DNA of 64,000 nucleotides, from the NCBI GenBank assembly GCA_963706025.1, contig CAVPLM010000008.1, forward strand, positions 32,001 through 96,000, given 5' to 3'. This document shows, one piece after another, positions 9,648-58,695 of this stretch (the first letter of the stretch is position 1; each line of letters begins with the position of its first letter). Origin of the DNA: an uncultured Actinomycetes bacterium. Lineage in GTDB: Bacteria > Actinomycetota > Thermoleophilia > RBG-16-64-13. The notes under the pieces are model-generated. The model was not told the DNA's origin, did no database searches, and saw nothing but the letters and a program-made list of their open reading frames with translations. The position numbers and the translations under genes are program-made.

Positions 9648-9739
9648 GAAAGCCAAGAACGGCACATCGGAGCCCGGCTGATGAGGCCCGACTCTCCCGT
9701 ATTTCGGCCGAGTTCGGTGGCAAGTCGGGGGCAAACTCG
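9648..9739 (+). repeat. Post-tRNA module (spacer, degenerate hairpin, GGGGGCAA direct repeats)
   Basis: GAAAGCCAAGAACGGCA...GGCCGAGTTCGGTGGCAAGTCGGGGGCAAACTCG, matching the copies at 15461, 22931 and 31165. Confidence 0.85.
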
Positions 9740-9906
9740 TCGAGACTCATGGTAGGCAAGGGACCGAGACGGACGAGATAGCCGGAGACAGTGCACGCTC
9801 TCTCCCCGGCAGACATACTGCCGAGTGAAGGCTTAGAATGAAAGGTGGAGTGCGTGGCCTGGGGAAGCATGAGATGACAAAGCCGGCTAGAGCAAGAGGA
9901 CCTTGA

Positions 9907-10119
9907 ATGAGTCGGTCGCGACGCGCCAAGGATGATCGGATCGGTGAGTGGGCCGATCGAGTATTGACAGGCGAGGAGCCAGAGTTCCCCGACACTGACA
10001 AACAGGGCTATATGCATCGGGGCAGCTTTCTCACTGGGATGTTCGTCGGGCCCTCAGTGTTCTTTGCCGACCTGCTCTTCGGCAGTTGGTGGAAGAGACG
10101 CAGGAAGGTTGACCTCTAG
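9907..10119 (+). CDS. Small hypothetical membrane protein
   Basis: 70 aa, AGAGGA RBS, C-terminal hydrophobic stretch and basic tail. Confidence 0.5.
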   Translation: MSRSRRAKDDRIGEWADRVLTGEEPEFPDTDKQGYMHRGSFLTGMFVGPSVFFADLLFGSWWKRRRKVDL

Positions 10120-10293
10120 GTCAGGGCATCGCCGCAGCCTTTCCACGCACAGACACACTCTCGCCCCTGCCGGACATATGATGGAGTGAGCTTGACGGGA
10201 AACACTCGGCACCGGTGAGAAGGGCCGCCAGTCATGTAACGCTAGAAGGTCACTGCCAGGGTGTTACTAGTGGACCCTTGCGAGCGAGGGGGC

Positions 10294-10852
10294 ATGGTTC
10301 AAGAATCGGCCAGCCTATCGGGTGACGGACCGAGCACGGCTGCTAGCGCGGGCGTACTTGAGCGTGCCCAAGCGGAAAGCTTCGAAGAAGTAGTGGACCG
10401 ACAGGCAGAGCGCTTGGTACGCAGCCTCACCGCCATGTTTCTTGACCGTGAACTGGCAGCGGATGGAGCCCAAGATGCGTTCGTCCAACTCTACAAACAC
10501 TGGGATGACGGTTACCAAGACAGGAAGTCCAGACGCCTGGCTCTACCGAGTAGCGGTGAACTGCTGCAAGGACTACAAGTCGGCTACAGCCCGGGCTTCT
10601 CGCCTTTTCCAAAGGCTGGTCGGCGCTGGTCCGGAGCACCCAGACTATGTGGACTGGGAACCCCGGGCGGAGTTCCTGAGCGTTCTTTCCCAGCTTCCCA
10701 CCCGCCAACGCATCGCTGCCGCTCTCTACTACGACGCCGATCTCTCGGTGGCAGAGATTGCCCGGGTCATGGGGATCTCGGAAGGTTCCGTGAGCAGCCA
10801 TCTTCATCGGGCCCGCCTGGCCCTCAAAGATATTCTGGAGACGACGCGGTGA
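10294..10852 (+). CDS. ECF RNA polymerase sigma factor (one frameshift near 10510)
   Basis: ELAADGAQDAFVQLYKHW in one frame, then PDAWLYRVAVN...LPTRQR...SVAEIARVMGISEGSVSSHLHRAR in the next. Confidence 0.88.
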
Positions 10853-13545
10853 TGAACGCCGATCAGACTGACGAACAGATACGCACTTTCTACGAAGAGA
10901 ACGCCGCCCGGCTGGATGTTGATTCGTTCAAGGACGAGCTTGCCAAGCAGGCTGCCTTCGGGCGGTAGAAAGAAGACACCCAGGTACCAAACGAGTGGTC
11001 ACCTTCGCCCTTGTTGGAGTCGTTCTCCTAGCAGCGGTAGGTGTGGGCGTGAATGCCCTTGTAAGGTGGGTGGGGCACGACCAGGGAGTGATTGTCATCA
11101 CGGACGAGGGGATGAGGCTAGGACCGGCGTCCTCGGAGGCTTCGACCGCGGGAAGGGAACAACGCTCGGTCATTACCATACATGGTCCGGCAACCATCTC
11201 CCGTCCCGCCCCCACCAGTGTCGTTCTTTCGGCCTCTTGGGGCAGCGGCCCCGAGCAGTTCGGACTGGATGAGAGCGGGGCGGGCTACGGGCCCAGCGTG
11301 ATGGCAGTCTCTGAGTGGGGGGTGAATGGTCTGGAGGGTCGGATACTGGCGGTTGCAGACCAGGTCAACTCCCGCGTGCAGCTGTTCCTGCTTAAGGACG
11401 ACGGGAGCGCCGATCTTCTCAGAAGTGTCCCCCTCCCCAGCGTCGCCGGTGGACTCTCGGACATGGTCATAGACCCCGATGGCCACATCTATGTGCTTTC
11501 AGGAGGTCAAAGCCAGGTCATCTATGCGCTATCGGCCGCAAGTGATGATGTCCACCTCCTCTACAACCCGACTCCCATGGCCGTCAGGCTCCATCTGAAC
11601 GGCTTCAACCTCTTCGCAGAAGGGGCGGACGGTAAGTCCTATGGCGTGACCGCAATCTTCGACTACGAGGGCGGCCCCGGAGACAAGCTGCGCGAGCGCG
11701 GCCTCGACACTTCCGCGACCGCCTGGGCGGCCCCCGTTGATGGAGTGCCTGTGCCCGGGTCCAATGAAGGCCGGGTGGCGAAGGTACAGCTCCGCGATGG
11801 AAACGCGGAAGTAAGGGTGGTGAACACTGCGGGGGAGCTGCGGCAGGCGTTCGTTGTCACGTCGCCAGACCTTCCTATCGACTCAGCTGGACTGCTCGGG
11901 CAAGACGCCGCTCAGAACCTGTGGGTGCTCATGCGCATCTACGCCGACGGCTGGGAAGGAACCGAGTCGTTTCTGATGGTTGGGGTCTCTCCGGAAGGGA
12001 CAAAGGTGGGTGAGCTCCGCCTGCCTCTGGATGCCTATGCGACGTGGGACGTCTTCCTCGACCCCGTGTTTCCCTTCGGCGTCTACGAGATGCGCGGGAC
12101 CGAAGAGGGACTTGAGATCAATCGCTACTCCAAGTTGGTCGAGCCGGTCACCACGACGACTGTCTTCTCCCCCGAAGAGACCGCTCAGCAATGGTACGAG
12201 CGCGGGTACTTCATGGGCTACTGGGCCGGCAACGTGGAGACCATACCGGTCCAGCCTGCGAGCTCTTCCCGAGTTCTTCTTCAATGGGCCCACCCCTTCA
12301 GCGCCCCTGGTCACGGATCTCCAGGGGAATCCGATACGGAAGGACCCTTCGGAAATCAAGAAGCCCCTATGGGTCTTTGGTAACGAAGTAGACGTAGCCG
12401 ACTACACGGAGCGGATCCGCCAGGCCAAGAACGGTGGACGCCCCGTTCTTCTTTACGCGACTGACGTCGGCGATGCCTGCGAGGTCCTGGAGCTTCAGCA
12501 ACACACTTGGAGTGACACGCCGCTTGAGCGCCTCATCGCCATATGGCCCGGAGAAGGTGCCACCACTGCCTCAGTCGGCACTTACGAATGGACTGAATCG
12601 CCTAGTTCTTCAGTCCTGCGGGCAGCCGTCGTCTTCCACAGCCTGGTGGAGGCAACTCTCCTGATCCCGGGGCCCACTGCGTCCCCGACCACGACCGAAG
12701 TCATACAGGGGCGCGTCGTCTTTGAGGCTACATGGGGCGACCAGGCCGACCAGGCTGGACTGACGAGAGGGGAGGGCGAACTACGTGGTCCGGCCTCGTT
12801 CGCAGTCGAGAACGGACTCCTGTATGTATTGGACGGCATCAATAAGCGAATCCTTGTTGTGGACGAGGGTCAGGTCATGCGGGCCATAGCCATAGAGCAG
12901 GCCACCGATCCAACCGACATCGCGGTCGCCAGTGATGGGACCCTCGTTGTGGACGACTGTCGCGGTACTGGACAGATACTCGCGTATGCAACGAATGGAT
13001 CGGTCTCAAGGGCAGTCGTTCCGGAAGGGTTGACTCCGGCCATCTTGTGGAGGGACGGCAACACGGTCTACTCGTTGATGGGTCTTGACGAAGATACGCG
13101 ACGATCCGGTTATGTGCCGGTCTTTGAGGGGGGAACGCTAAGGGACATCAGTGAACAGGTCAAGCTTGCGCTTGCCGACTGCCCCGTTTCCGACGGAGCA
13201 ATTCGTATCGAGGCAAAGGACGATCAATACTCAGTTGCCAATATCAGGAACGGTGAGACGGTGTTCAATGTCACTCTGGATCCCACCATCTCCTCTCCTG
13301 TGGAATTCCAGAAACAAGCAAATGGCGGAGTTGTCCTATCCTTTCTGACGGAGTCCAGAGAAGAGGAATTCCGTAGAACGGCCTGGCTCGTTGGTTCGTC
13401 CGGGTTCAAAAAGGCGTTCGACCTGGGTCCCGAGAGTATATGGAGCTATATGCATGTTCACTCACGGGTGACTGCTGGTGGGTCTGTCTACGTCATGACC
13501 AGTGACGTGGACGGACTGACGATCACGCAGTTCGATCTGAAGTGA
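10852..13545 (+). CDS. Large membrane-anchored putative anti-sigma/sensor with two NHL/beta-propeller-like domains (frameshifts near 10965 and 12260)
   Basis: Coupled to the sigma stop; TM helix; repeated domain VVLSASWGSGPEQFGL..VADQVNSRV and VVFEATWGDQADQAGL..VLDGINKRI. Could be two genes. Confidence 0.6.
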
Positions 13546-13907
13546 GGCTCACTCGACTTGCAGGCCAGTGCTCGGCACGTAGGCAACGGCTCCCCCAACA
13601 ACCCGCGAAGGCGTTGACACTCCGGTCCCCACCGCGACAGATGACAGAGCGCACCAGGTGAATCCGATCAACTCTGAGGCGCACGTGTCAGGTACGTTTC
13701 CTCGCCTCTTTGCGCCATCTTCACGTCCTCGTTGCCCTTCAGCGCTCGCCGCACCATGTCTGGATTCCCAGGCATCAACTTTGTGAGAGCCCCGATTGGC
13801 CGCTCCCAGGCTCGGCCGGCGGGGGCATCTGTTTGCGGACTGACTGAGTAGGGGATAGTGGAGTTGTACGGGGAGTAAGTGATACTCGCTATCTGCTGGA
13901 AGGGGCG

Positions 13908-14228
13908 ATGGCCATGGTTCTCCATATCATGAAATGGGACATCCACCCGGACAAACTGGACGCCTACTTGAAGTGGACAGAGGGCGCGATCAAGCGCAGC
14001 TTGGCAGTCCCAGGTGTCGTTGAGTTTCGGGCGTACCGAGGAGCCACTGGTTCTTCCCAAGTTGTGACGACCTGGGAGTTAGCCGACATGGCGGCCTGGG
14101 CGGCCTGGCAGGGCAGCGAGGACATGCAGAAGGTGCGGGCTGAACTGGGCACACTGGCCCTCAATGTGGAGATTGAGGTCTGGGGGCCGTCGCCAGTCGT
14201 ACCTGCGCCTATCAGACCGGGCAAGTAA
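13908..14228 (+). CDS. Dimeric alpha/beta-barrel (ABM/EthD-like) protein
   Basis: 106 aa; AVPGVVEFRAY, TTWELADMAAWAAW pattern; RBS and downstream hairpin. Confidence 0.7.
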   Translation: MAMVLHIMKWDIHPDKLDAYLKWTEGAIKRSLAVPGVVEFRAYRGATGSSQVVTTWELADMAAWAAWQGSEDMQKVRAELGTLALNVEIEVWGPSPVVPAPIRPGK

Positions 14229-14261
14229 GCAACGTCATTCCTGATATCCGACTCCACGGTG

Positions 14262-14290
14262 ACGGAGGTCCTTCGGGGCCTCCGTTCTTG
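14262..14290 (+). terminator. Putative intrinsic terminator
   Basis: ACGGAGGTCC-TTCG-GGGCCTCCGT followed by TCTTG. Confidence 0.6.
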
Positions 14291-14323
14291 TTCGTGGCTT
14301 CCGCAGGGAGTTCACCGCTAGAG

Positions 14324-14390
14324 TCCGGTCGGCTGAGGCCGGGTTTTCGCGTCTTTGGGGCGAGTTCGGGGGCAAGTCGGTGGGAAACTC
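14324..14390 (+). repeat. Orphan hairpin + GGGGGCAA module
   Basis: TCCGGTC..GGCCGGGTTTTCGCG..GGCGAGTTCGGGGGCAAGTCGGTGGGAAACTC. Confidence 0.85.
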
Positions 14391-14507
14391 TTCAGCAACA
14401 GACGGCACAGAACGGAACGAGACGAGCAAACGCTTCTCGCTGGTTCTAACCGCTGCGTCAGGGTAGAAAAGCGACCAGACAGGTGCTCAAATCCACTGGG
14501 GCTAGCA

Positions 14508-14990
14508 CTACGCCGGGTTGGGAATCGCTTCACCCCCCTGGGCGGGCGGCTCAGACTCGACCACACGTTTCAGGTTCTGCATTCCTCGTTCGCAGATCTC
14601 GTTCCACCGAGGTTTGAATACAAACACGTTCACTACAGGGCCGATGACCGGCGGTTTGGGTTGGTACTCCAGAACAAAGTTGACTCGGGTGGAAGCCCCT
14701 ACCGGCTCGAAGCGCCACTGCTTGCGCGCATCTACCCCCATGAGCGGCGTCAGGAAGGTCCAGCCTTTGTCCCCTTCGTATTCCACCGTCTCCCAATCGG
14801 ACGTCCGGGCCTTGCCAAGAAAGGTCAGGTCCACATGCAGGCGTGCTCCCAGCCCTGCCTCCTTGTCTCCAATCGGCTGCACCTTCTGGATGTAGTCGAA
14901 ATAGCGCGGGATGTTGCGCCAATCTCGAACGAAGCCGATAACCTGGGTGGCTGGTCTATCGATGACAGCCTGCTTCTCGATCCTTGTCAT
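14508..14990 (-). CDS. SRPBCC/polyketide cyclase family protein
   Basis: IDRPATQVIGFVRDWRNIPRY, WRFEPVGASTRVNF, MQNLKRVVES. Confidence 0.85.
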   Translation of the reverse strand: MTRIEKQAVIDRPATQVIGFVRDWRNIPRYFDYIQKVQPIGDKEAGLGARLHVDLTFLGKARTSDWETVEYEGDKGWTFLTPLMGVDARKQWRFEPVGASTRVNFVLEYQPKPPVIGPVVNVFVFKPRWNEICERGMQNLKRVVESEPPAQGGEAIPNPA

Positions 14991-15415
14991 GGCGCGGGCC
15001 TCCTTCCATGAAGCGACCGTAGGTGAGACGGGACCGCCGACCTTTCTCTAACGCCGTGAATCCCTAATGCAAGTATCTGGCTATCCGAGAGTGTAGTCAA
15101 GCCCTTCGCGAGGCGGTGGCCTGGGGCCTGGTGTGTCCTGTGTCCTGCAGGAGCGGACCTATCGATCATATACGCGAACGCACCTCTCCAGCCCGGTGCG
15201 CCACAGCAGATACAGATTCCAATCGGGGTGCCGGTTCGGCAGTTCACGAAGCCAGCTAGCGAAAGCTACAGCGCGCCCGACTCCATGAGCCACGGCACTT
15301 CTCCAGAAGATGGCGTCGGCACCGGCGGGGAGCTAGGTCCGCCGCACAAGACGGTGTTCGTCCACACCCTACAGCCACCTGAGGCCGGGTAGAGGAGTCC
15401 CCGAACGCATCCTGG

Positions 15416-15553
<138 letters not shown>

Positions 15554-15939
15554 CCACCACAGAACAGGCGTGGATGGACGCGAGCAGTCCGCACATAACG
15601 GATGGGTTGCGCCGGGTCCGATCATCCCGCCCGAGCTCAAGCTCGCCATAGGCATCGGGCAGAAGGTCACCGAGGTTCGCCCCTAGGGGCAGGGGCAGAC
15701 GCCCGTCGAAGACCAGGAGCGCGACTGCCACACTCCCTTGCGTCGATTGCCCGGCTTGTCGCAGCCGCTCTTGGCAGCCCGTCTTTTGAGGCTCTCCTGT
15801 CCCTCGGGCCAGGTCAAAGACCAGCCTACCGCCCAGGCAACAATCCCGACAGCTGGCTGGTTCCTTCGAGGGACCGTGTTTGTATTCTACGTTGTAGAGT
15901 GTTCGACACCGTAGAAACGACAGAGCGGGAGAAGAGGCA

Positions 15940-16131
15940 ATGGGTACAGCAACTTCATTAGCCGAACTGAACCAGTCCCAGACGGCTCTGTCCGACGAGG
16001 AACGTCTTCATCTTCTAGACGAGTTTCTGGTGGCCACGTCCTTGGGATGGGAGCAGGTCGTGAGTGTTCTTCAATCCTACGTACGGGACCCAGAGACGCG
16101 GGAGACGCTGGAAGAGCTGCTGGCGGCCTGA
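15940..16131 (+). CDS. Small hypothetical protein
   Basis: 63 aa, GAGG RBS, acidic helical sequence. Confidence 0.5.
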   Translation: MGTATSLAELNQSQTALSDEERLHLLDEFLVATSLGWEQVVSVLQSYVRDPETRETLEELLAA

Positions 16132-16185
16132 GGGCTTGGTCATCGGCATAGCGAGAGAAACGCAACAGCACCGAGGAGGCGCGAC

Positions 16186-16350
16186 ATGATCGAGAACGTA
16201 ATGAAACTGCACAAGTGCGAGAACTGCAGCATTCGCTGCAGGGGGGCGGCAAAGCCCGGTTCGGTCTCCGCTCGCATCCATCGCTGGCATATGACCTGGT
16301 GGCCGGGCTGGAAGATCTACCAAGCGGAGCTTCGCGAGCGCACCGCGTGA
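16186..16350 (+). CDS. 54-aa CxxC / Trp-rich small protein
   Basis: GAGGAGG RBS; MIENVMKLHKCENCSIRCRGAAKPGSVSARIHRWHMTWWPGWKIYQAELRERTA; below the ORF-track cutoff. Confidence 0.7.
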   Translation: MIENVMKLHKCENCSIRCRGAAKPGSVSARIHRWHMTWWPGWKIYQAELRERTA

Positions 16351-16378
16351 CCAACAACAGGCACGAGAGAGGAAGATT

Positions 16379-17092
16379 GTGACTCCAAAGACCAGAAGAT
16401 CGGTAAGTGAGCGGGGGTCAACCGGGCGTCGCTATCCGGAGGAGCCGCTGAGTCGCGAACGGATCGTGAGCACTGCGCTGGCCCTGGTCGACGAGGAGGG
16501 GCTGCCGGCTCTCTCCATGCGCCGTCTGGCCGCTGCCCTGGGCGTCGATCCCATGGCCATCTACTACTACCTGCCCAACAGGGCCGCTCTTGAGGATGCC
16601 ATAGTCGAAGCGGTGAATGTCGACATGTACGCGGACGAGTTCTCGTTCGACTTCTCACTTCCCCTGTACGATTTCGTGGTGGCGGCAGGGCGGTTCTATC
16701 GGACGGCCCTGCTGCGCCATCCCCACGCCGTCTACCTCATGGTGGTGCGGGCCGCGCCCACGCCGACCGCCTCGAGACCGGGTGACGCGATGATGGGCAG
16801 GCTCATCGAACGGGGTCTCACTCCTGCCGAGAGTGTTACGGCCGTAGACGTCTTTTCCACGTATGTCACTGCCTCCGTCCTCCGGCAGGTCCAACTGCCG
16901 ATGGGACCGGAGCATGACCCGCACGTCCAACTACGGAAGATGAAGGACGCGCTGGACCCGGCGGAGTCGCCCAACCTCGTTCGGGCCATCGCCGAGGGAA
17001 ACCTCATGGATTTCGACGCTGAGTTCGAGTTCGGACTTCAGGCCCTCGCCCGGGGGTTCGCCGAAGTCGCAGCCAAACGAGCGGCCGGGTAG
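16379..17092 (+). CDS. TetR family regulator (TetR_C type)
   Basis: LSRERIVSTALALVDEEGLPALSMRRLAAALGVDPMAIYYY; FEFGLQALARG. Confidence 0.93.
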   Translation: MTPKTRRSVSERGSTGRRYPEEPLSRERIVSTALALVDEEGLPALSMRRLAAALGVDPMAIYYYLPNRAALEDAIVEAVNVDMYADEFSFDFSLPLYDFVVAAGRFYRTALLRHPHAVYLMVVRAAPTPTASRPGDAMMGRLIERGLTPAESVTAVDVFSTYVTASVLRQVQLPMGPEHDPHVQLRKMKDALDPAESPNLVRAIAEGNLMDFDAEFEFGLQALARGFAEVAAKRAAG

Positions 17093-17130
17093 GGCCGACT
17101 CGATCGTTCAATCGCAAAGGAGGATCAGCC

Positions 17131-17490
17131 ATGACAACCATCGGAGCGACAAGCACAGGGGAGTCTCAGAAGCGCACGTTGGAGCTTCAGCTCGAGCGGA
17201 GCGGCTGGGCCCTCTTTCTCATCATGATTGGTGGGCTCGCCCTCCTGCCCGCAGGCTGGGTTCCCGCAGGGGTCTGGCTCGTGGGCGTGGGGCTCATCAT
17301 GGTGGGGATGAACATCATTCGGCATCGCAAAGGCATCCGGATCAGCGGCTTCACCACAGTCCTCGGAGTCGCCGCGATGGCCGCGGGGTTCTTCTCGATG
17401 GCTGGAATCGATTTCCCGGTGTTCCCCGTTCTCCTGATAGCCGTCGGGGCTCAGATCCTCTACGGCGTAAGCAGAGGACAGCGCGACTAG
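17131..17490 (+). CDS. Four-TM membrane protein
   Basis: AGGAGG RBS, four hydrophobic helices. Confidence 0.75.
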   Translation: MTTIGATSTGESQKRTLELQLERSGWALFLIMIGGLALLPAGWVPAGVWLVGVGLIMVGMNIIRHRKGIRISGFTTVLGVAAMAAGFFSMAGIDFPVFPVLLIAVGAQILYGVSRGQRD

Positions 17491-17519
17491 TCACGCCCCG
17501 GTCACCGAAGGGAGCGTCC

Positions 17520-18263
17520 ATGAGAGTCTTGACCGTCTATGCCCATCCCGATCCTAGGTCGTTCTGCCACGCCATCCTCGAGCAGTTCACCAAGGGACTC
17601 CAGGATGCCGGCCACACGAGCGAAGTAGTCGATTTGTACGCCATTCGTTTCGACCCGGTCTTTCGCATGCAGGACTTCCCCAGCTACGTGCACCCAAGCA
17701 TGCCGCTCGACATACTCGAGCAGATGGACCTAAAGAAGCGCGTGGTGGACTCCGCCGGGAATCCGGTGACGAAGCTCATCGCCAAGCGTTGGCTTCGGAA
17801 CAAGGACACACTGGAAGTGGCCCGGATTATCCATGAGCACAGGCCCAAGGACGTTGCGGCCCAGTGGGACAAGGTCAAGAGCGCCCAAGGCTTGGCCTTC
17901 ATCTCGCCCGTGTACTGGCTGCATTTCCCGGCGATCATGAAGGGCTGGTTCGAACGGGTTTTCGCCTACGGCGACGCCTACGCCTTGACGCCCGAGGGAT
18001 GGCGCGGAGAAATGGCCGGTCGAGTGCCGCTGCTTCAGCATGAGAAGGCCCTGGTCATCAACACGACTCTCTTCCGGGAAGAGGACTATGAGACCTATCT
18101 CAAGGAACCGATGACCCGGATCATCGACGACTGGGGACTGCGCTACCCAGGGGTCAAGAAGGTCGAACACGTCTACTTCTATCGCGTGCCGGTAACGGAC
18201 GACGAGTCCAGGCGGGGCTATCTAGACCAAGCCTACCGGCTGGGCAAAGACTTCACCGATTAG
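17520..18263 (+). CDS. NAD(P)H-dependent oxidoreductase (Flavodoxin_2)
   Basis: VYAHPDPRSFCHAI, PVYWLHFPAIMKGWFERVF. Confidence 0.92.
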   Translation: MRVLTVYAHPDPRSFCHAILEQFTKGLQDAGHTSEVVDLYAIRFDPVFRMQDFPSYVHPSMPLDILEQMDLKKRVVDSAGNPVTKLIAKRWLRNKDTLEVARIIHEHRPKDVAAQWDKVKSAQGLAFISPVYWLHFPAIMKGWFERVFAYGDAYALTPEGWRGEMAGRVPLLQHEKALVINTTLFREEDYETYLKEPMTRIIDDWGLRYPGVKKVEHVYFYRVPVTDDESRRGYLDQAYRLGKDFTD

Positions 18264-18321
18264 CGGCTCGATTCGTGCGCGGATTGAAAAAGGAAAGGCA
18301 TCGACATTGAGGGGGTGCGTC

Positions 18322-19191
18322 ATGCGTGACACAGAGCAAGCGGAGCGGCTCGTCGAACGTCTCGATCCAAGCGAGGACTTCAACTTCGAGCACTTCCGGA
18401 TGCGACACATGCTCGCGGAACTTCTGCGCCCCGGCCTTCGCCCCGGCCGCGAAGCGCCGGACTTCAAACTGCCCTCCACCGACGGTCCGCCCCTGCAGTT
18501 GAGCGACCTCCGCGGAGCGCCGGTGCTCCTCCACTTCGTGAGCTACACGTGCCCAGTCACGCGCGGGGGCGTGGCAACGATGGAGGAACTGTATCGGCTC
18601 TACGGCGAACAGGTGCGGTTCGTCGAAGTGCTTATGCGCCAAGCGCACCCCGGGGAGCGACACGGCGCGTACCGCTCCAACGAGCAGAAGCTTCAGGACG
18701 GCCGCGACTACCAGCGCGAAGAGAACGTACCGTGGCCGGTACTGGTCGATGATCTCGCCTGCAGCGTGCAGCGCGCATACGGTGGTTTGGCCGCCGCCGC
18801 CTACCTCATCGACAGCCGCGGAATGGTCGCCTTCTGCGGCACCTGGGGCCAGTCCCCTGCCCTACGAGAGGCCCTCAACGACCTCCTCGCCCGTGGCGGC
18901 ACCGGCACCCCGGCCGGAAAAGGCACCGACCGCCGACCGCACCTCGCCGCCGGCATCGTCGCCGGCCGCAGCGGCCCGGCGCGCGGCGGACGCCAAGCCC
19001 TGATCGACCTCGAACTCGGCTTTCCCAGCGGGAACATCCTCATGCTTGTCGGGGGAGTGCTGCGGCCGCTGCTCGCGCCGCTCGCGCTTCGCACGACGCC
19101 GATCCCACCGAAGGAACGTGCCGCTCTCCTCGCCGGGCTTGTCGCTGCAGGCGCCGCTCTTGGTCTCGGCGTGAGACACATCCGGCGCTAG
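18322..19191 (+). CDS. Peroxiredoxin-like / deiodinase-like thioredoxin-fold protein
   Basis: PGREAPDFKLP, LHFVSYTCP, RQAHPGE, VLVDDL, AYLIDSRGMV. Confidence 0.8.
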   Translation: MRDTEQAERLVERLDPSEDFNFEHFRMRHMLAELLRPGLRPGREAPDFKLPSTDGPPLQLSDLRGAPVLLHFVSYTCPVTRGGVATMEELYRLYGEQVRFVEVLMRQAHPGERHGAYRSNEQKLQDGRDYQREENVPWPVLVDDLACSVQRAYGGLAAAAYLIDSRGMVAFCGTWGQSPALREALNDLLARGGTGTPAGKGTDRRPHLAAGIVAGRSGPARGGRQALIDLELGFPSGNILMLVGGVLRPLLAPLALRTTPIPPKERAALLAGLVAAGAALGLGVRHIRR

Positions 19192-19208
19192 GGGTTTCTC
19201 AGCATGAA

Positions 19209-19275
19209 GCCCGGTCCGTGAGGCCGGGTCCTCGCATATTCGGGCCGAGTTCGGGGGCAAGTCGGGGCAGACTCG
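19209..19275 (+). repeat. Orphan hairpin + GGGGGCAA module
   Basis: GCCCGGTC..GGCCGGGT..GCCGAGTTCGGGGGCAAGTCGGGGCAGACTCG. Confidence 0.82.
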
Positions 19276-19518
19276 ACGGCAGGGAAGACGGCAGTGAAGG
19301 GACCGGAGGAACGCCAGTCCTTTCGCCTCACTTGTGTCCGTGAGCGCCCGCTCGATGACGGGTGACCCCTTCGTCCGACGGGCGCGATTTCTCTTTGCCC
19401 CATGTCAACAATTCGACCCTCTCGTGCGTGTATACGCCGAAAGCAGGACAATGGGGAAGCGGAGACGGGACTGGTTAAGGTGGAGGCGGACGGCAAAACG
19501 TTCTTGAAGACCGGGAGC

Positions 19519-20049
19519 GTGACCGGTTTGAGCGACTGGCCGCTGAGTGATGGCAGAGTCCGGGAGCACCTGCACTATGGCTGCCCCGAAGACGTCTTCG
19601 AGCACGACTACGACCGTTTGGTCCAGGCGCTGACCATCGTGGCCGGTGACAAGGAAACAGCCGCCGACGCGGTCCAAGAGGCCTTCGTTCGCCTTGTACG
19701 CGACTGGGGCCATTTGGGCGCCTACGAGAATCCAGCTGCTTGGGTACGACGAGTGGCTTTGAACCTGATCCACGATCACCAACGCTCGGTCTGGAGACAG
19801 GCGAGACTCCTGCTCAGAATCGAGCAGCAGCCCCCCGCGCGGGAGGGAGCCTCGGCGATGGCTGAAGAAGTGTGGGAGCAGCTGAGGGCCCTGCCTCTCA
19901 AACAGCGCACCGCTCTCGCTCTCTACTACGTGGGCGACTTGACCGAGCGTGAAGCGGCCGACGTCATGCACGTGTCGGAGGGCACGGTCAAGCAGCACCT
20001 GCACCGCGCTCGGCAGACACTACGAGAAACACTGGAGGGACAGTGGTGA
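19519..20049 (+). CDS. ECF RNA polymerase sigma factor
   Basis: AADAVQEAFVRL, PAAWVRRVALN, LPLKQR, SEGTVKQHLHRAR; start approximate. Confidence 0.92.
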   Translation: MTGLSDWPLSDGRVREHLHYGCPEDVFEHDYDRLVQALTIVAGDKETAADAVQEAFVRLVRDWGHLGAYENPAAWVRRVALNLIHDHQRSVWRQARLLLRIEQQPPAREGASAMAEEVWEQLRALPLKQRTALALYYVGDLTEREAADVMHVSEGTVKQHLHRARQTLRETLEGQW

Positions 20050-22155
20050 ACCTAGACCGGCAACTCGAAGAAACACTGAAGTGGCTCGCGGGGCCGGTGG
20101 ATCGAGGCGGAGTATGGGCCGGCATCGAAGCCCGCGCGCAGAAAGAACAGAGAGCGCCCGAGGAAGGTCTGCCCTTGGCTGGCTGGATCGGTGAGCAGGC
20201 CGGTGATAGCGAGCGGTCGCTCGCACCGAAGGCGTCCGCCCCCAGGCGCAGGAGCGGCCTCCGCGTTGCGGTCTTTGCGTCCATCGCCGTCGTCCTGGTG
20301 GCCTCCATAACCGTCGGGAGCCTAGAGGCCGCCAAACACCTGGGCAATGACCAGCCCGTGCTCGTCATTACCGACGACACCCTCAGTCCCACGGCTACCG
20401 GTCAGACAGACCATACGACGGCAACCGGGGCACAAGGTGGGTACTGGGAGCGGCTGCCGTTGACCAGCTTGGGCGGGGCCGTCAGTATCCTGGTCATGGA
20501 TCCCAGCAACCCGTCGATCCTCTACGCGGCGAGGTCCGATGGTCTGTTCAAATCGAGCAACGGGGCCGGGAGTTGGAAGCGGCTCGCGCCGCTCGAGAGC
20601 GACCTGTTTGCCGTGACGGATGTAACCCTTATCACGATCGATCCGGCCTCCCCATCCACGGTCTACGTGACGGCCTGGGACGGTGGGCCCGCACTGTTTA
20701 GGTCGGATGACGGCGGCGCCAGTTGGGTGGACTTGAACTGGGCGTGGAACGATGTGATCGCCGCTGTGGGGGAGATCATAGATCTGGGCCCCGGGAACAC
20801 ATCCAGGATGTGGTTCGACACAACATCCTCCCCGTCCACGGTGTATGTGGCGGGCGCCTACCCGGTGGTCCTCGCCGCCAAGCCGGTGTTGCGGTCGACG
20901 GACCGGGGCAAGAGCTGGACCATGCTCAGCCCGGAAGAGGCAGCCCAGGCGCTGGCACAGCAACCGGAGGGCGGGCTCGGGACGGACTTCCAGGGCACGG
21001 TCACGGACGCTGACACCGGCGCCGTCCTTGCAGTTTCCATGGGACGTATCGACCCCGGCGATCCGTCGATCCGGTACGCCGGCACCGAAGAGGGCGTCTA
21101 CAAGTCCACGGACGGCGGCACCACCTGGAAGAAGGCAAATGCCAGCTTGCACACTTCCGTGGCCTGGAGGGTGGTTCCCGATCCTAGTTCGCCGGCCATC
21201 CTCTATGCGGCTACGCCTGAGGGGATCTTCAAATCCGACGACGCTGGCATCACGTGGAGCATGATCCTGCCCGGTCAAGGCTCGGTGGTCCTGGCGCCCT
21301 CCTCCCCCTCTACGCTATACGCGTGGACATCGGCGGGGCTGTTCCGCACCGACAACGCCGGGGCCGAGTGGACCCAGCTTGCCGGCGCAGGCCTGGTCGA
21401 GCAGACCGCCCCTAGCGGTGCGGAAGGTGGCCTGGCTCTGGTCGCCGCCGACAACCCCGACACCGTGTTCGCGATGACGGGGATGACGGACACGCCTATG
21501 AAGCGCCTGTTCAGATCCACCGACGGCGGCAACACCTGGAGCCAAGTGCTCGAAGGGGTTGCGTTCGGTACACAGCGGTGGTGGTCTTCTCGTCGCCGAT
21601 CCGCTGAATCCCTCTACCTTGTTCACCGCTACTGAGTCGGGCGAGGCGGGCCAGGTGCTCAAATCGACGGACGCTGGGAGCACGTGGACGGTCGTCGCCC
21701 CCGCCGAGCAGTGGACAAACGGGCTGCAAGACATCGCGGTAGACGCGCACACTCCCTCCAACGTCTACGTGATCCAATGGCAGGGCATCGGTGATGGACC
21801 GAACCCGGTCTTTCGCTCGCCCGATGGCGGAGCCACCTGGGAGAAGGTCGACCTCGCAAACCTCGAAGGCCTTGGGGAGCCCTTCTGGTCTCCACAGCGG
21901 CTGCTGTTCGATCCCCGGTCACCCGACACGCTCTATGTGCCGGTGGTTAGAATGGTGGGATGGGGCATAGGCGCAGGCCTCTACCGCTCGACGGACGGAG
22001 GAGTCACCTGGGAGAGCATCATCGGGGGGCTCGACGCCCATGAAGCGGATAGGGTCAGCCAAGCGCCCAACATCGTGATCGACCCTGCCCCCGGCGGAGG
22101 GCTGTACGCCGCGACGGGGTTCAGCCTCTTCCAGTGGGTGCCCGAGAACGAGTAA
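20046..22155 (+). CDS. Membrane-anchored BNR/Asp-box (sortilin/VPS10-like) repeat protein, putative anti-sigma sensor; frameshift near 21575
   Basis: Overlaps the sigma stop; TM helix; many SxDGGxTW Asp boxes continuing in ORF 21559-22155. Confidence 0.8.
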
Positions 22156-22205
22156 GGCAGTAAGGCGCGTGAGCACAGGTAACGCGAGCCAGAAAGAGGT
22201 GCGCC

Positions 22206-22688
22206 GTGAAAGCCAGATTCCTGCTACGTGGTCGAGTCAACCGGTGGCTGCTGGTCGCGGCGGTGGTGCTGGCCGCGGCCGCGGTGGCCGTGGGTGCATG
22301 CGGCGGTGGGAGTAGCGATACGGCTCTCCTAGACAAGCTGGGGGCGGCCTGGATCTCCAACGATGTCGCCGCGGCCAAGGAAGTCTACGCAGCCGATGCC
22401 GTCATCCAGTGGCCGGAAGGAAGCGAGCCCGCCGTGTCCACCGGCATCGATGCCATCACCAAACTGGTAGCAGACTACCCGGTCGACCCCACGCGGATTG
22501 GGGACGAAACATTCACCTACGTCCCCTCCGCCAAGGACATCGAGGCCCTGAGCGTGGCGTACAAAGGGGCGCAATTCATAGCCTACCCGGTGAGGGTAGG
22601 GCGCGATCTCTACATGTCGGTGATAGAGATCCGTGACGGGAGGGTAGCCAACCAGTGGGTGTCGTACATGTATCGCCCCACCCCGTAG
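22206..22688 (+). CDS. Lipoprotein with NTF2/SnoaL-like domain
   Basis: Signal peptide ending VGAC; DVAAAKEVYAADAVI, IEIRDGRVANQWV. Confidence 0.75.
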   Translation: MKARFLLRGRVNRWLLVAAVVLAAAAVAVGACGGGSSDTALLDKLGAAWISNDVAAAKEVYAADAVIQWPEGSEPAVSTGIDAITKLVADYPVDPTRIGDETFTYVPSAKDIEALSVAYKGAQFIAYPVRVGRDLYMSVIEIRDGRVANQWVSYMYRPTP

Positions 22689-22878
22689 ATCCCCCAGACC
22701 ATGTGCCAAAGACCGACCGAGCTTCCTCCATCGATCCCAACGGCTTGATCACCCGGGAGGAAGTGCTCTACGACGCCGACACAGCCTCCTGGCCTCCGGC
22801 CTCGTATGCTGAGCCTGGGAAGCCCTGGCAGCGCCCGGTGGGCACACCTCGGGCAACGGCAGGCCTTTTGGACAGCAT

Positions 22879-23019
22879 CGTTGTGCCGCGCAAGCGGTAC
22901 CGGGGGTTCGAATCCCACCTCTCCGCTTAGAAAAGCCAAGAACGGCATGTCGGGCCCGGCCCGGGTGGCCGGGTTTTCGCGTCTTCGAGGCGAGTTCGGG
23001 GGCAAGTCGGGGGCAAACT
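22879..23019 (+). repeat. tRNA-Ser 3' fragment plus full module
   Basis: CGTTGTGCCGCGCAAGCGGTACCGGGGGTTCGAATCCCACCTCTCCG, then AAAGCCAAGAACGGCA, hairpin-TTTT and GGCGAGTTCGGGGGCAAGTCGGGGGCAAACT. Confidence 0.92.
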
Positions 23020-23221
23020 AGGGAAAAAACGGGTGCTGGACGGACGCGTACAGTTCTGCTCCCGGGGACTGGCAATCAGTGGCCGCTGCTCTGGCTCAAA
23101 TCCTGGGGCTGCACTTGTCAGAACATAGCGTGATCTGGAGGTCCGGTGAGCATTGCCAAGCAGGACATGGAGATTCCTGCCTTCCGCCGACCGGCGAAGC
23201 CCCGGCGGCAACTCCTGGCGG

Positions 23222-28764: not shown

Positions 28765-28786
28765 CCAAGCTCCCGACGGTCCATCG

Positions 28787-43623: not shown

Positions 43624-43659
<36 letters not shown>

Positions 43660-43847: not shown

Positions 43848-43946
43848 CTCGTTCGGAGGACAAACTTGATCTGAAGCCCGGTCAATGGGGCCGGGTTTCG
43901 AGCGCTGCTCGCGCAACGACTGCTATGATTCGCGAAGCGATCGAGA

Positions 43947-47227: not shown

Positions 47228-47318
47228 GCTCGACCGTCAAGGCCCGTGTCTGCCTTGAGAACGGATTGTGGCTTTCGATAATATGACAGATTCCCACGTC
47301 TGGGGAGGGCTGGACCGA

Positions 47319-47343
47319 TACCGGAGGTTCGAATCCCCCACCG
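47319..47343 (+). repeat. Degenerate tRNA T-arm fragment
   Basis: TACCGGAGGTTCGAATCCCCCACCG. Confidence 0.65.
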
Positions 47344-53032: not shown

Positions 53033-53150
53033 CTCGAAGAGAACAGCACTCACGAGTGCCGCACGGACGGGTATACATTGGGCGGGACGATCATTCCGGG
53101 CCCGTGGGTGTAGCGTCCGCCTTGTATCTCACTCAAAGGAGGGGACGGCA

Positions 53151-53504
53151 ATGGAACTGATAGATGCCCTGCTGGGAGACGTTCCCATGCTCGTGGCCAC
53201 TGGGACCATAGACCACAGCACGTGCGGTGTTCTGCAGGCGGCCCTTCACCGAAGACTCGAGTCCCGCCATAACATCGTCTTCCTGGATCTCAGCAACGTC
53301 ACCCATATGGACGACGCCGGTCTCTCGGTCCTCCTCGCCTGGGTGCAGGCCTTGCACGGGAGAGGATGGCTGGGGGTGATCGGGCCAAACGTCGACGTCC
53401 GCCGCCTTCTGGAAGGCGAGGGGTTCCTCGTCCATCCGAACGTGCGCGTCTTCGAAACCAGGCAGGCGGCTCTCGTTGCCACGGGGGAGAGGCAAAGCAC
53501 GTAA
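53151..53504 (+). CDS. STAS domain protein, copy 2
   Basis: Protein identical to 34556-34909; duplicated span about 53091-53537. Confidence 0.85.
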   Translation: MELIDALLGDVPMLVATGTIDHSTCGVLQAALHRRLESRHNIVFLDLSNVTHMDDAGLSVLLAWVQALHGRGWLGVIGPNVDVRRLLEGEGFLVHPNVRVFETRQAALVATGERQST

Positions 53505-53552
53505 CCAAGCGGGATCAGCGAAGCTTGGCATGGACCGACAATCGGATCATCC

Positions 53553-54075: not shown

Positions 54076-54084
54076 GGAGACTCC

Positions 54085-54115
54085 GGGCGAGTTCGGGGGC
54101 ACTTCTTGGGCACAG
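54085..54115 (+). repeat. Degenerate GGGGGCA module
   Basis: GGGCGAGTTCGGGGGCACTTCTTGGGCACA. Confidence 0.65.
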
Positions 54116-55699: not shown

Positions 55700-55740
55700 G
55701 CCGCGCAACCGGTACCGGGGGATCGAATCCCCCCCTCTCC
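55700..55740 (+). repeat. tRNA-Ser 3' fragment with two mismatches
   Basis: GCCGCGCAACCGGTACCGGGGGATCGAATCCCCCCCTCTCC. Confidence 0.88.
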
Positions 55741-56791: not shown

Positions 56792-57580
56792 CTAGTTCGG
56801 CCGCCGCAGCAGGAAGAACACGTTGCCGTAGTACCCCGGGTACTTGCGGCGTATGTCGATCTCCGCTTGGATCCGCTCCAGCAGCTCCAGCCTCTCCGGA
56901 TCGGCGGCGAGACTGTTGCGATACCGGGCGAGACGAGCTTCGAGTGGGCGGTAGTAGAAGTCCCACCACGATGAATCGGGGAGCACGAACTCGCCCACGA
57001 GCTCGAACCCGCAGTCGGCGATGAGCCTTTCATTGGCTATCACGTCGAGCATCGCGGGATACTCGGCGGCGAAGAACTGCGCGCACTCCGCCGGCGGGTC
57101 GGGAAGCAGCCAGGCGAGTTCGGAAACCGCCGCCAGCCCACCGGGCACCAGCCGGGCGAAGCAGGCCTCGAGTCCGGCCTGAAAGCCCATGACGAAGAGA
57201 GACCCCTCGGCCCAGACAAGGTCGAAGACTCCCTCCTCCTCGCTCAGGGCGTGCATGTCTTTCAGGCAAGAGCGGATCTTCTCCCCCAGACCCTCGGCGC
57301 GGGCGCGGCTCTCCAGCTCGTCCAAGTACGGCTGGTGGTTGTCTACGGCCAAGACGGTGCCGTCCAGATGACGGGCCAGTTGCAGCGTCTGCGCGCCGGT
57401 GCCGCAGCCGATGTCTAGGACCCGCATGCGCTTGGGCTGTGGCCTGTCCGAGCCTCGACCCCCGGCAACCAGCAGACTACTCAGAGCGCGCAGGGTCGAA
57501 GCGTCATCTCCCGGGCCTAGCCGCGGCATCGTGGGGTCGAATATCTCGTAGAAGAGACGCCATTGTTCTTGTTCGTCCAT
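56792..57580 (-). CDS. Class I SAM methyltransferase
   Basis: PRLGPGD, VLDIGCGTGAQT, FDLVWAEGS, YYGNVFF. Confidence 0.92.
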   Translation of the reverse strand: MDEQEQWRLFYEIFDPTMPRLGPGDDASTLRALSSLLVAGGRGSDRPQPKRMRVLDIGCGTGAQTLQLARHLDGTVLAVDNHQPYLDELESRARAEGLGEKIRSCLKDMHALSEEEGVFDLVWAEGSLFVMGFQAGLEACFARLVPGGLAAVSELAWLLPDPPAECAQFFAAEYPAMLDVIANERLIADCGFELVGEFVLPDSSWWDFYYRPLEARLARYRNSLAADPERLELLERIQAEIDIRRKYPGYYGNVFFLLRRPN

Positions 57581-57710
57581 GGTGGTGTTCTTCACCCTTC
57601 CTGACGTAGGCGGCCAAATCGGCGTGGACAGGCTACCTAGATTCGCGTGCCTCACAACCGGTCACACGGTCTGTAGACGCCCTAGCTCCGTCTGCAGGCG
57701 GGTGCTCGCG

Positions 57711-58596
57711 CTACCGCTGCCTACGTCCGAGGAAGGGGACCAGGACCGGTGTCCGCCGTTTGTAGGCCTCGTACGCTTCCTGGCCGCCCCAGGTCGTGTC
57801 GGCCTTCTTCTCAAGGAGCGGCACGCCGCTCACCCGGGTGATGAGCAGATAGACGAAGACCGGCGAGATGAGGGTCACGAACTGCCAGCCCCGCAGCACC
57901 GGCAGGGCGATGAGGGCGATGCCGATCCACAGGGTGATCTCCCCGAAGTAGTTGGGGTGCCGGGAGATGGCCCACACACCCGAGGTGATGAACGAGCCCT
58001 GGTGGGCAGGGTCGGCCCGGAAACGGCTCTTCTGGAGGTCGGCAATGGCTTCGAGCCCGAAACCGATCGCCCACACGCCCAGGCCTACGTACGCGAAGCA
58101 GGTCGAGTCCCTGGGGCTCGGTCGAGGTCACGGCCGCCAGCGCGGCGGCCAGGGTCAGGCTCACCCACAGCCCTTGCAGCGTCCAGGTCATAAAGAGGCG
58201 GGGAGCAGAGCGCTTGATCTCATCGAAGCGGTCGTCCTTGCCCGCTCGGCGCACCCGGCGAAAGAGGAAGGGTCCCAAACGTCCGGCCCACACGAGTACC
58301 AGCACCAGCAGCAGGATGGAGCGGGCGTCGCTGGCCCCGCTCAAAACGACGGCAAGCACGATGCCCGAGATGTAGGTGAAGCTGCCGGTGAGATCGTAGA
58401 AGCGCTCGGTCTGCCCGAGGTAGGAGGGTACGAAGGCCAGCCACTGCACGAGGAAGGCGTAGCCGACGATAAGCGCGAAGACCGGCATGACCCCAACAGT
58501 GACCCCACCCTGGGAGCCGGCCCAGGCGACCAGGCCGGCGACCAGAACGACCACGAGCGAAGCGGCGATCGACGAGGCGCTCTTTTTGCCGGCCAT
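57711..58596 (-). CDS. DUF1295 membrane protein, copy 2, same frameshift (near 58099)
   Basis: Near-identical to 29569-30454. Confidence 0.85.
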
Positions 58597-58661
58597 CTGC
58601 TGCTCCTCGGGGACGGTATTCGGTGCGCGCGAACTCGAAAGCCATGGTAGCAGGACGCGTC

Positions 58662-58695
58662 GGGCGAGTTCGGGGGCAACTCGGGGGCAAACTCG
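58662..58695 (+). repeat. GGGGGCAA module at the end of the duplicated unit
   Basis: GGGCGAGTTCGGGGGCAACTCGGGGGCAAACTCG, followed by GGACCGGGAC x2. Confidence 0.85.

Follow-up and report, generated by a model that had tools for sequence, protein, structure and literature searches.

A repeat module behind tRNA-Ser(CGA) is a probable attachment-site arm of stacked integrative elements in an uncultured actinobacterial lineage

The window analyzed here is a 64,000-nucleotide (nt) stretch (positions 32,001 to 96,000 of contig CAVPLM010000008.1, assembly GCA_963706025.1; G+C ~64%) from the genome of an uncultured Actinomycetes bacterium. Downstream of its tRNA-Ser(CGA) gene, a short module recurs in the order linker, GC-rich hairpin, T-rich spacer, three tandem 11-bp repeats (GGCGAGTTCGG GGGCAAGTCGG GGGCAAACTCG) and GACGGACG-rich tail. 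Sequence comparisons show that elements of one family place this module directly behind the tRNA 3' end, and they lead us to regard it as the likely element-side (P'-type) arm of the attP/attL site of small integrative elements that are stacked behind tRNA-Ser(CGA). The target of the family is the 3' half of this tRNA gene, its hosts belong to a lineage with public relatives labelled Thermoleophilia, Gaiellales or Actinomycetota, and a limited literature search found no published description of this lineage or of the module. Below, G-numbers denote genomes (G000 being the window's own, and the window itself G000:C8:32001-96000), C-numbers contigs, L-numbers loci and P-numbers public proteins.

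The module and its copies in the window

The sole intact tRNA gene of the window, tRNA-Ser(CGA) (ARAGORN; Rfam tRNA, 58 bits), is followed by an array of ~51 kb that comprises at least 16 units, 10 3' fragments of tRNA-Ser and 12 copies of the module, all on the + strand. The 10 fragments begin at tRNA positions 37 to 62, with left ends that vary from the anticodon loop through the variable arm, and most of them reach the tRNA 3' end; two smaller tRNA remnants are present in addition. An Rfam search returned nothing in the window except tRNA, and nothing in 1-1600. The tRNA gene and the module copies are the following.

9197-9288, + strand: intact tRNA-Ser(CGA), anchor of the array (attB/attL core); its upstream flank is syntenic with those of G011 and G007
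9648-9775, + strand: module copy 1, with linker remnant AAAGCCAAGAACGGC, degraded hairpin, repeats at 9707-9739 and GAGACGGACG tail; poor RNA fold (-10.6 kcal/mol, z = 0.19)
14322-14424, + strand: module copy 2, without tRNA fragment; hairpin at ~14325-14343, repeats at 14359-14391; RNA fold -18.2 kcal/mol
15413-15590, + strand: module copy 3, with tRNA fragment at 15413-15455 (tRNA positions 49-91), hairpin at ~15487-15505 and repeats at 15521-15553; RNA fold -26.2 kcal/mol, z = -4.8
19207-19300, + strand: module copy 4, without tRNA fragment, after the stop codon of an AhpC-like gene; linker of the 'GGGGTTTCTCAG' type, repeats at 19244-19275
22879-23050, + strand: module copy 5, with tRNA fragment at 22879-22925 (tRNA positions 44-91) and repeats at 22989-23021
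25952-26130, + strand: module copy 6, with tRNA fragment at 25952-26003 (from the anticodon loop, with a variant variable arm) and repeats at 26068-26100
30492-30553, + strand: partial module copy 7, with three repeats at 30521-30553 and no hairpin, within a 998-bp duplication
31126-31290, + strand: module copy 8, with tRNA fragment at 31126-31155, degraded hairpin and repeats at 31221-31252
34990-35023, + strand: partial module copy 9, with the 3' hairpin half, spacer and repeat 1 (35013); a GNAT cargo gene begins directly after it
35745-35877, + strand: partial module copy 10, with truncated tRNA fragment at 35745-35756, hairpin and repeats 2-3 (35819-35840); repeat 1 is absent
54086-54112, + strand: partial module copy 11, with repeat 1 followed by degenerate sequence
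58634-58730, + strand: partial module copy 12, with repeats at 58663-58695, no hairpin and a tail of GGACCGGGACGGAC repeats; a duplicate of copy 7

Seven of these copies are complete, with hairpin, spacer and all three repeats (repeat 1 starts at 9707, 14359, 15521, 19244, 22989, 26068 and 31221), and five are partial. The module begins right behind the '...CTCTCCG(CTT)' of tRNA fragments or intact tRNAs, such that repeat 1 starts 93-96 nt from the start of the fragment motif and the repeats lie ~64 nt past the tRNA end. A tRNA-Ser 3' fragment stands immediately upstream of four of the 12 modules (those with repeats at 15521, 22989, 26068 and 31221), and the module at 9707 lies 360 nt past the intact tRNA. 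At copy 5, homology with contig C7 of the same assembly stops exactly at '...CTCTCCGCTT', the tRNA 3' end.

To define the conserved positions, we aligned 113 of 126 distinct copies from the window and its relatives, leaving out seven matches to the 22-mer pattern only and six copies without a hairpin. The resulting consensus is GCCAAGAATnGCnTGTCGnGACCCGGTCCnnGAGGCCGGGTTTTCGCGTCTTTCG GGCGAGTTCGG GGGCAAnTCGG GGGCAAACTCG nCAGCA...AGACGGACG. Conservation reaches at least 90% in the repeats and in the 3' arm of the stem, the loop is variable, and the repeats have a period of 11 bp. These results agree with most of what a first-pass annotation of the window had described, namely about 12 copies confined to the + strand (the motif is present at all 12 positions that it named, and none is on the - strand), a conserved stem and repeats around a variable loop, and a repeat spacing of about one helical turn. 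Its description of the module as following several tRNA fragments holds directly for the four window copies named above; about half of all modules have no recognizable fragment upstream. The 22-mer pattern, at up to one mismatch, has 25 matches in the window's genome, and the reversed pattern has none in 41 genomes. The 15-mer linker by itself is weak evidence, with five matches against 1.4 expected and two of 100 shuffles equalling that number. Two GGCA[AG][GC]TCGG units 12 nt apart on the + strand (33104-33127) lie inside an amine-oxidase gene on the - strand and are probably there by chance.

Within the same 113 copies, the two sides of the stem pair in 89% of cells, compared with 25-47% when the partner column is slid; leaving out the six hairpin-less copies raises the first figure. 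Five of the seven complete hairpins in the window fold stably (-15.6 to -26.2 kcal/mol), and two are degraded. Behind the stem, the consensus T-tract is GGGTTTTCGCGTCTTTCG, with four T in a row.

The module accompanies tRNA-Ser(CGA) across genomes

A search of the window's own genome at up to three mismatches gave 27 matches, 26 of which are module copies; the other (C5:1106459) lacks the remainder of the module. All but one of the 26 modules are located in stretches with tRNA-Ser fragments and share the orientation of those fragments (contigs C3, C5, C7, C8, C10, C11 and C18), and arrays occupy at least seven contigs of this genome. The lone module, C11:95129, has the opposite orientation, and its nearest fragment is 23 kb away. 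The first-pass annotation had named a dispersed, repetitive extragenic palindrome (REP)-like repeat unrelated to tRNA as the finding that would speak against its view; the tie of the modules to tRNA-Ser fragments and arrays, 25 of 26 in fragment orientation, rules out such a repeat, as it does one resembling a miniature inverted-repeat transposable element (MITE).

The module is present in 10 of 24 other genomes of the same family, which represent seven genera including that of the window, and in none of 16 genomes of other families in the class. Among named genomes, exact matches were to metagenome-assembled genomes (MAGs) labelled Thermoleophilia, Gaiellales, Actinomycetota or Actinomycetes; in other groups, a few sequences matched just the 22-mer and were set aside on inspection, as they have no hairpin and no third repeat. 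The module pattern had no match in viral contigs. In G011, G019 and G072, the module lies directly behind an intact tRNA-Ser(CGA). The same chromosomal locus bears arrays in other genera (G007, G011, G019 and G072), headed in G007, G011 and G019 by an intact tRNA-Ser(CGA), and the array of the congener G001 spans at least 90 kb, with 27 modules at up to four mismatches.

A tyrosine integrase family is linked to the module

A family of tyrosine integrases (PF00589 plus Phage_int_SAM_3) recurs in or near the arrays, with a 79-residue open reading frame (ORF), s79, just downstream of the integrase gene. At every locus where the integrase, s79 or their remnants occur (L030, L032, L131, G001, G007, L012, L023, L033 and window 13674-13754), their strand is the opposite of that of the module, and they lie 0.7-4.7 kb downstream. 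The window retains a single trace of a mobility gene.

13674-13754, - strand: s79 remnant, 81 nt (tblastn, 85% identity to s79 residues 52-78)

Most integrase copies in or near the arrays are truncated or contain stop codons. Some of these "broken" genes may be artefacts, since a broken frame at window 2-1516 hints at insertion and deletion errors in the assembly; several others are cut off at the N-terminus by unrelated sequence, which is real truncation. The region at 2-1516 has many paralogues, 65-79% identical, in G001-G003, its frame is broken by stops in the window and its pieces have no Pfam match; it is either a pseudogene or a sign of such assembly errors.

Public data contain intact integrases of the module's clade, namely P0002 (381 residues, 84% identical), P0003 and P0004, with lengths of 381-389 residues and 77-84% identity to the L030 integrase. 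A search of 61 genomes of the family gave open integrase frames in G072 (387 residues; locus L206) and G076 (384 residues; locus L205). In L206, an intact tRNA-Ser(CGA) (4836-4923) is followed by the linker, the hairpin, the three repeats (from 4986), ~4.7 kb of ORFs without a Pfam family, s79 (9716-9940, - strand) and an intact 377-residue integrase ORF (10011-11144, - strand). The first-pass annotation had proposed looking for co-location of the module with integrase genes at tRNA-Ser, and the G072 element, with its module behind an intact tRNA-Ser(CGA) and its intact integrase, is such a case. In L205, an element at the same tRNA encodes an integrase 67% identical to P0002, and its arm combines the other linker type, TTTTGCAGGGAGTTCTTCG, with a hairpin and with tandem repeats of a different sequence, TTTGGTGACAT / CCTGGTGACAT. 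Pfam detected no genes for phage functions, replication or transfer in L206 or L205, and P0002 has no relative in viral contigs.

The AlphaFold model of P0002 (predicted local distance difference test score, pLDDT, 85) places a three-stranded sheet and a helix at residues 3-53, and residues 62-350 match the Tn1549 integrase (Z 23.3, root-mean-square deviation 2.2, 272 residues) and the lambda integrase (Z 18-19). As modeled, the integrase is of the lambda/Tn1549 structural class. The Pfam family Arm-DNA-bind_4 (PF14657) is on record for 13 of 120 listed homologues.

The small protein s79 (L030:1000-1236, + strand; L206:9716-9940, - strand; G000:C5:682015-682245, + strand) has no Pfam family. 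Its model (pLDDT 84) has the order helix-strand-helix-strand-strand, and a Foldseek search against the PDB gave R3H, winged-helix and Smr folds at a best E-value of 0.1, with no clear match among solved structures. Paralogues of s79, 36-56% identical, are located away from integrases in 20 of 24 genomes of the family. Intact elements have, immediately upstream of the integrase gene and often overlapping it, an ORF of 333-414 residues without a Pfam family (L183:155-1282, L188:158-1282, L184:2649-3878, L185:2637-3881, L187:2609-3817, L191:2724-3800, L205:11141-12307 and L206:14245-15246); several copies have common motifs, such as 'WPG..IPVP' and 'EELYLRE'.

Two further tyrosine recombinases were noted outside the window. 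G000:C3:452227-452940 is a 237-residue open frame (PF00589, 112 bits) that is near no array and that, judging from the extra segment of IntI proteins, resembles an integron-type integrase without its N-terminus. L066:6412-7020 (G001:C6), in the first unit of the G001 array, encodes a 202-residue protein with the catalytic domain only (PF00589, 137 bits).

Related integrases at other tRNA genes have arms of the same plan

More distant homologues of the integrase (45-51% identical, 381-442 residues) are intact and are convergent with tRNA-Ser(TGA), Leu, SeC, Cys and Phe genes, with only 100-150 nt between the tRNA end and the integrase stop codon. These short arms contain the linker ATTTGCAGGnnTTCTT, which also occurs in one module subtype, and in three of them a hairpin with a T-run behind it is present. 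Direct repeats of 11 bp, arranged in tandem, start 55-95 nt past the tRNA end, with a sequence that differs from element to element. The repeats of these arms, one of which is in the window's own genome, and of L205 are listed here.

L188: TTGCCATCCTA / TTGCCGTCCAC / TTGCCGTCCAA
L189: ATTTGGTGTCC, twice
L191: TTTGCCAACGG, twice
L187: GTTTGGCACCA / TTTTGGCACCC
Contig C10 of the window's own genome: CTGACGCGACA / CTGACGCGACG and further units, accompanied by an integrase C-terminus remnant
L205, at tRNA-Ser(CGA): TTTGGTGACAT / CCTGGTGACAT

In L183 and L185, the integrases have similar N-termini, and the two loci share TGCCCTCCGTYTGCAAAC just before the integrase stop codon. The build of these arms is the one known from heterobivalent integrases.

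Proposed mechanism and the evidence against it

The module thus combines three short repeats, at least 90% conserved and unlike the core, with a counterpart in the arms of related integrases, and the region has the features of a tandem tRNA-island array, with an intact tRNA at one end, tRNA fragments in the same orientation and remnants of integrase and s79. The first-pass annotation had inferred an element end made up of a restored tRNA 3' end, a terminator and a protein-binding arm; the tie to tRNA-Ser, the G072 element, the arm plan of the relatives and the predicted structure of the integrase all fit this view. Judging from the boundaries of the fragments and the known mechanism, crossover would fall within the sequence that element and tRNA have in common, which can extend from the anticodon loop up to the 3' end. 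Integration would install the element's own copy of the tRNA 3' end and, behind it, the linker, the hairpin and the three repeats. The repeats would most likely be arm-type binding sites for the N-terminal domain of the integrase, s79 or another accessory factor being an alternative binder, and the hairpin would probably terminate the tRNA transcript. Every new integration at the intact tRNA would displace older elements outward, and the outcome would be an array in which the integrases are lost or broken, the cargo, tRNA fragments and arms remain, and deletion, duplication and exchange reshuffle the units.

A number of observations weigh against this interpretation. A scan detected no tRNA fragment upstream of 46 of 99 modules; many of these 46 retain a fragment shortened at its 5' end, and the others stand behind the stop codons of cargo genes. 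The window contains no integrase, and Pfam identified no recombinase, transposase, replication or transfer protein among its ~58 ORFs. L206 has no second tRNA fragment (attR) in the 15 kb next to its tRNA. This recombinase family typically has arm-type sites to either side of the core, a feature not known to be universal, and no copies of the 11-mers were found on the P side, upstream of the 10 window fragments or on the - strand; within 20 kb of L206, including the vicinity of the integrase, the 11-mers occur only in the module itself. Read as its reverse complement, ACTTGCCCCCG, the module repeat is similar to the repeats that relatives carry on the sense strand, TTGCCGTCC, and if the two are homologous, then the module repeats are inverted relative to the core.

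For the integrase, the structure search hardly covered the N-terminal domain of P0002, and PF14657 was below threshold in two distant homologues (20.4 and 17.2 bits against 22.3) and undetected in four integrases of the module's clade. An arm-binding N-terminal domain in the modeled integrase is therefore likely but not established. For the hairpin, covariation in the stem is weak (nine cells changed on both sides, a number equalled in 14 of 500 shuffles), so that a role as RNA is not separable from plain conservation of the DNA sequence. A consensus terminator scan, which asks for at least five T in eight bases, flagged no module hairpin, as the T-run comprises only four T.

Two other identities for the module were rejected. 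An integron attC site does not fit, as there is no intI/attI platform and the borders of the units are tRNA fragments, and replication iterons do not fit, as Pfam found no Rep gene in any unit.

Cargo and turnover of the units

The units carry one to five ordinary genes on either strand, for example genes for a TetR regulator, a flavodoxin-like reductase, an AhpC-like protein, an ECF sigma factor, a BNR-repeat protein, a SnoaL-like protein, a P-type ATPase, a radical SAM/SPASM enzyme, hydrolases, a GNAT acetyltransferase, a permease, NifU, NifS, DsrE, and MMPL and MFS transporters, as well as a MoxR/DUF58 operon. Contigs C7 and C8 of the same assembly have units in common (GNAT, 95% identity; ECF, 81%), as do the window and G001 (ECF 88%, GNAT 96%, MoxR operon 94%, NifU/NifS 95%, methyltransferase 87%, kinase 95%), and the units common to the window and G001 are in a different order. 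Core DNA of the window's genome and G001 is 80-89% identical (two random 15-kb samples), and the tRNA flank is 74-87% identical. That four of the cargo segments (94-96%) are closer than the core points to recent exchange of integrase-less units. The highly similar cargo excludes the flanking module or fragment, its homology starting 12 or 75 nt past repeat 3, and the modules to its left differ in subtype. Some units are joined with no site between them, as in the NifU/S and methyltransferase unit. Two segments are duplicated within the array: 29565-30562 and 57707-58704 (998 bp, 98.8%), which hold a DUF1295 gene and the hairpin-less module, and 34499-34942 and 53094-53537 (444 bp, 99.3%), which hold a gene for a STAS-domain protein.

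Metagenomic data were examined for traces of unit movement. None of 80 metagenome loci is a circular contig or has terminal repeats. Contig L088 differs from G000:C10:23400-29330 in that, between flanks that are 97-99% identical, 257 nt replace 5.7 kb; the missing DNA includes an integrase remnant and a tRNA fragment, and the right breakpoint falls in a tRNA-Ser(TGA)-type fragment. This difference is not a clean fragment-to-fragment event, since the left breakpoint is inside a gene. When contigs from four DNA sequencing runs (X1-X4) were aligned to the window, 10328-13647 was nearly uncovered in X2-X4 and 14.3-28.9 kb was covered, and a module-to-module joint from 9678 to 14342, which skips 4663 nt, was present in X2 and X3 (one study), with a side of 29 nt that is in a repeat. 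Absence of unit 1 from some populations is thereby weakly hinted at, and we do not count it as evidence. Many joints from 9245 to ~22897 in the run contigs were taken as noise from other tRNA-Ser genes, their sides being at most 26 nt and their variable arms foreign.

Alternative explanations

The cargo comparisons hint, at the level of sequence, that integrase-less units still move, and they bear on an explanation that goes further than ours: the units would not be dead remnants but parts of a working platform for gene capture, each with a functional site (tRNA fragment plus module), and a lambda-class integrase encoded elsewhere would act in trans to excise them, exchange them between species and reinsert them behind tRNA-Ser(CGA). 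The modules are well conserved while nearly all integrase copies in or near the arrays are broken or truncated, there is no PF00589 match on the window's whole 213-kb contig or on the array contigs of G007, G011 and G019, and intact integrases of the right clade do occur in nature. The units, moreover, are short and carry unrelated cargo, they are duplicated within the window, they are ordered differently in G001, and four of those common to both genomes are more alike than core or flank. A circle formed from fragment to fragment would predict, however, that the shared cargo includes the adjoining module or fragment, which it does not; fused units without a site between them and the lack of terminal repeats at the metagenome loci are likewise unfavorable, and the window's genome, at 92% completeness, yielded no cognate intact integrase. 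Nor do conserved modules prove present-day function, because short sites survive deletion more easily than 1.2-kb genes do. We consider a platform of this kind possible but doubtful.

Two further explanations dispense with integrase binding. In one, the hairpin would insulate the units and the repeats would be an operator or activator site, for example of a winged-helix regulator, for the downstream cargo. Direct repeats spaced at 11 bp are typical of sites of the OmpR/PhoB type, a same-strand gene follows eight of the 12 window modules (three of these genes start ~25-70 nt past repeat 3, at 30576, 31279 and 35083), and modules also occur behind cargo stop codons without a tRNA fragment. The remaining four modules face a convergent gene, however (14508-14990, 23222-25648, 35996-36499 and 58772-59389, all on the - strand), a scan of 9000-28900 found no sigma-70-like promoter in or just past any module, no regulator gene consistently accompanies the module, and the relatives show the same plan in the interval from tRNA end to integrase stop codon, which leaves no gene downstream that could be controlled; a regulatory role is thus highly improbable. 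In the other, the module would be an inert piece of one ancestral element that never had a binding role and that was spread by tandem duplication and homogenized by gene conversion or homologous recombination. Duplicated units in the window are indeed 98.8-99.3% identical, some modules are chimeric or truncated (35013, 35819), and the stem is conserved by sequence rather than by covariation. Against such a relic, the same positions are conserved at 90% or more across many MAGs from several genera, in which loop, linker and all the cargo differ, the module keeps a fixed distance from the tRNA end and stands directly behind intact tRNA genes, and the arms of related integrases at other tRNAs share its build with different repeats, which argues for a functional design. 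We regard the relic as highly improbable, too, and an element-side attachment arm as the likely identity of the module.

Other features of the array

Besides the tRNA gene and the modules, the array holds the following features.

9289-9478, + strand: type C unit, ~190 nt, directly after the tRNA, cargo-free and without 11-bp repeats; second copy at 43661-43849
40326-40379, + strand: tRNA fragment starting in the anticodon loop, no module behind it
43624-43911, + strand: tRNA fragment (43624-43660), type C unit, truncated fragment (43831-43847), and linker and hairpin without repeats
47316-47339, + strand: diverged fragment resembling the tRNA T-arm
55700-55740, + strand: tRNA fragment, no module behind it
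60642-60675, + strand: last tRNA fragment of the window, approximate distal end of the array

The two type C copies are 97.4% identical (9252-9478 against 43624-43849), and the unit may be what remains of the arm of a different element family that used this tRNA site. A type C-like unit is also present in L026 (~4230-4428), and the truncated fragment that ends the second copy (43831-43847) has a junction, GCAAGATGCGC|GAATCC..., that resembles a junction in other genomes. The fragments at 25952-26003 and ~31115-31155 have variable arms that are unlike that of the resident tRNA yet still pair (GCGCCTTTGGCG and GCGCCCTCGGCG versus CCGCGCAAGCGG), and these compensating variants suggest donor hosts with other tRNA-Ser alleles.

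Significance

With the module interpreted as an attachment arm, a conspicuous family of repeats in a poorly known lineage from soil and sediment is accounted for. The module marks the borders of units in accessory regions of 50-90 kb and so aids their annotation and assembly, in which the arrays break contigs. It also defines a testable system, with tRNA-Ser(CGA) as target, an arm of ~130 bp that holds three repeats, an intact integrase as in G072 or P0002, and a small protein linked to the integrase. If it is true that integrase-less units move, then there would be a second route, besides integrons, for stacking and swapping small gene cassettes at one site, and if an integrase does so in trans, then the arrays of 50-90 kb would serve this uncultured actinobacterial lineage as a functional counterpart of the integron, anchored at a tRNA gene. 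If the units are immobile, the arrays are a well-preserved case of serial integration and decay at a tRNA gene.

Comparison with known systems

In the lambda attP, the P' arm contains three contiguous arm-type sites, P'1-P'3, which are bound by a heterobivalent integrase. The module resembles this arm in having three contiguous direct repeats on the element side that are unlike the core sequence, and the modeled integrase resembles that of lambda in its catalytic and core-binding domains (Z 18-19) and in having an extra N-terminal domain. Unlike in lambda, the target here is a tRNA gene, the repeats recur every 11 bp and are unrelated in sequence, and a hairpin lies between core and repeats; no matching sites were found on the other arm, and the repeats are candidate binding sites.

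Integron cassette arrays are long one-way runs of short units that lack a recombinase, each with a conserved recombination site, and their order varies. The arrays described here are likewise long, one-way and composed of short recombinase-less units bounded by a recombination-type site, and their order differs between relatives. In contrast to integrons, they have no intI/attI platform, an IntI-like fragment of the genome being elsewhere, on contig C3, and the genes upstream of the tRNA are a coenzyme A-transferase gene and an ORF without a Pfam match. Their units are bordered by tRNA fragments and an arm rather than by attC hairpins, the cargo is in both orientations, and the recombinase is of the lambda/Tn1549 class.

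A further known system is the actinobacteriophage attP sites of Cluster J mycobacteriophages, for which the published account describes a core that starts from the anticodon loop, flanking pairs of 10-bp direct-repeat arm sites and an int gene ~100 bp away (PMC3706429). The systems are alike in a core that overlaps the tRNA from anticodon loop to 3' end, in imperfect direct repeats of ~10 bp as putative arm sites and, for the more distant relatives analyzed here, in an integrase ~100 bp from the core (PMC3706429). They differ in that 0.7-6.6 kb of cargo separates arm and integrase in the module's clade, and in that the elements here have three repeats, on one side only, and are not recognizable phages.

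The ssrA-specific islands of Dehalococcoides kept their integration module in 16 of 31 cases and were a major contributor to strain differences (PMC3146451). They are similar in that many islands sit at one small-RNA gene, retain the integration module in part and carry varied cargo, and different in that the target is the transfer-messenger RNA (tmRNA) gene and the hosts belong to another phylum (PMC3146451).

In the tycheposons and tRNA islands of Prochlorococcus, elements integrate adjoining one another at a single tRNA, with partial tRNA copies between them, and newer elements push older ones inward (bioRxiv 10.1101/2020.12.28.424599). Those islands share with the present arrays serial elements split by partial tRNAs and scattered integrase remnants (bioRxiv 10.1101/2020.12.28.424599). 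They differ in host lineage and integrase family, and also in that, here, a conserved arm module marks most units and the arrays extend from ~50 kb (window) to ~90 kb (G001), with up to 27 modules. The arrays behind tRNA-Ser(CGA) are therefore a known kind of structure, represented here by an unusually long array nearly devoid of integrase genes, and what is distinctive about them is their scale, the scarcity of integrases and the conservation of the arm.

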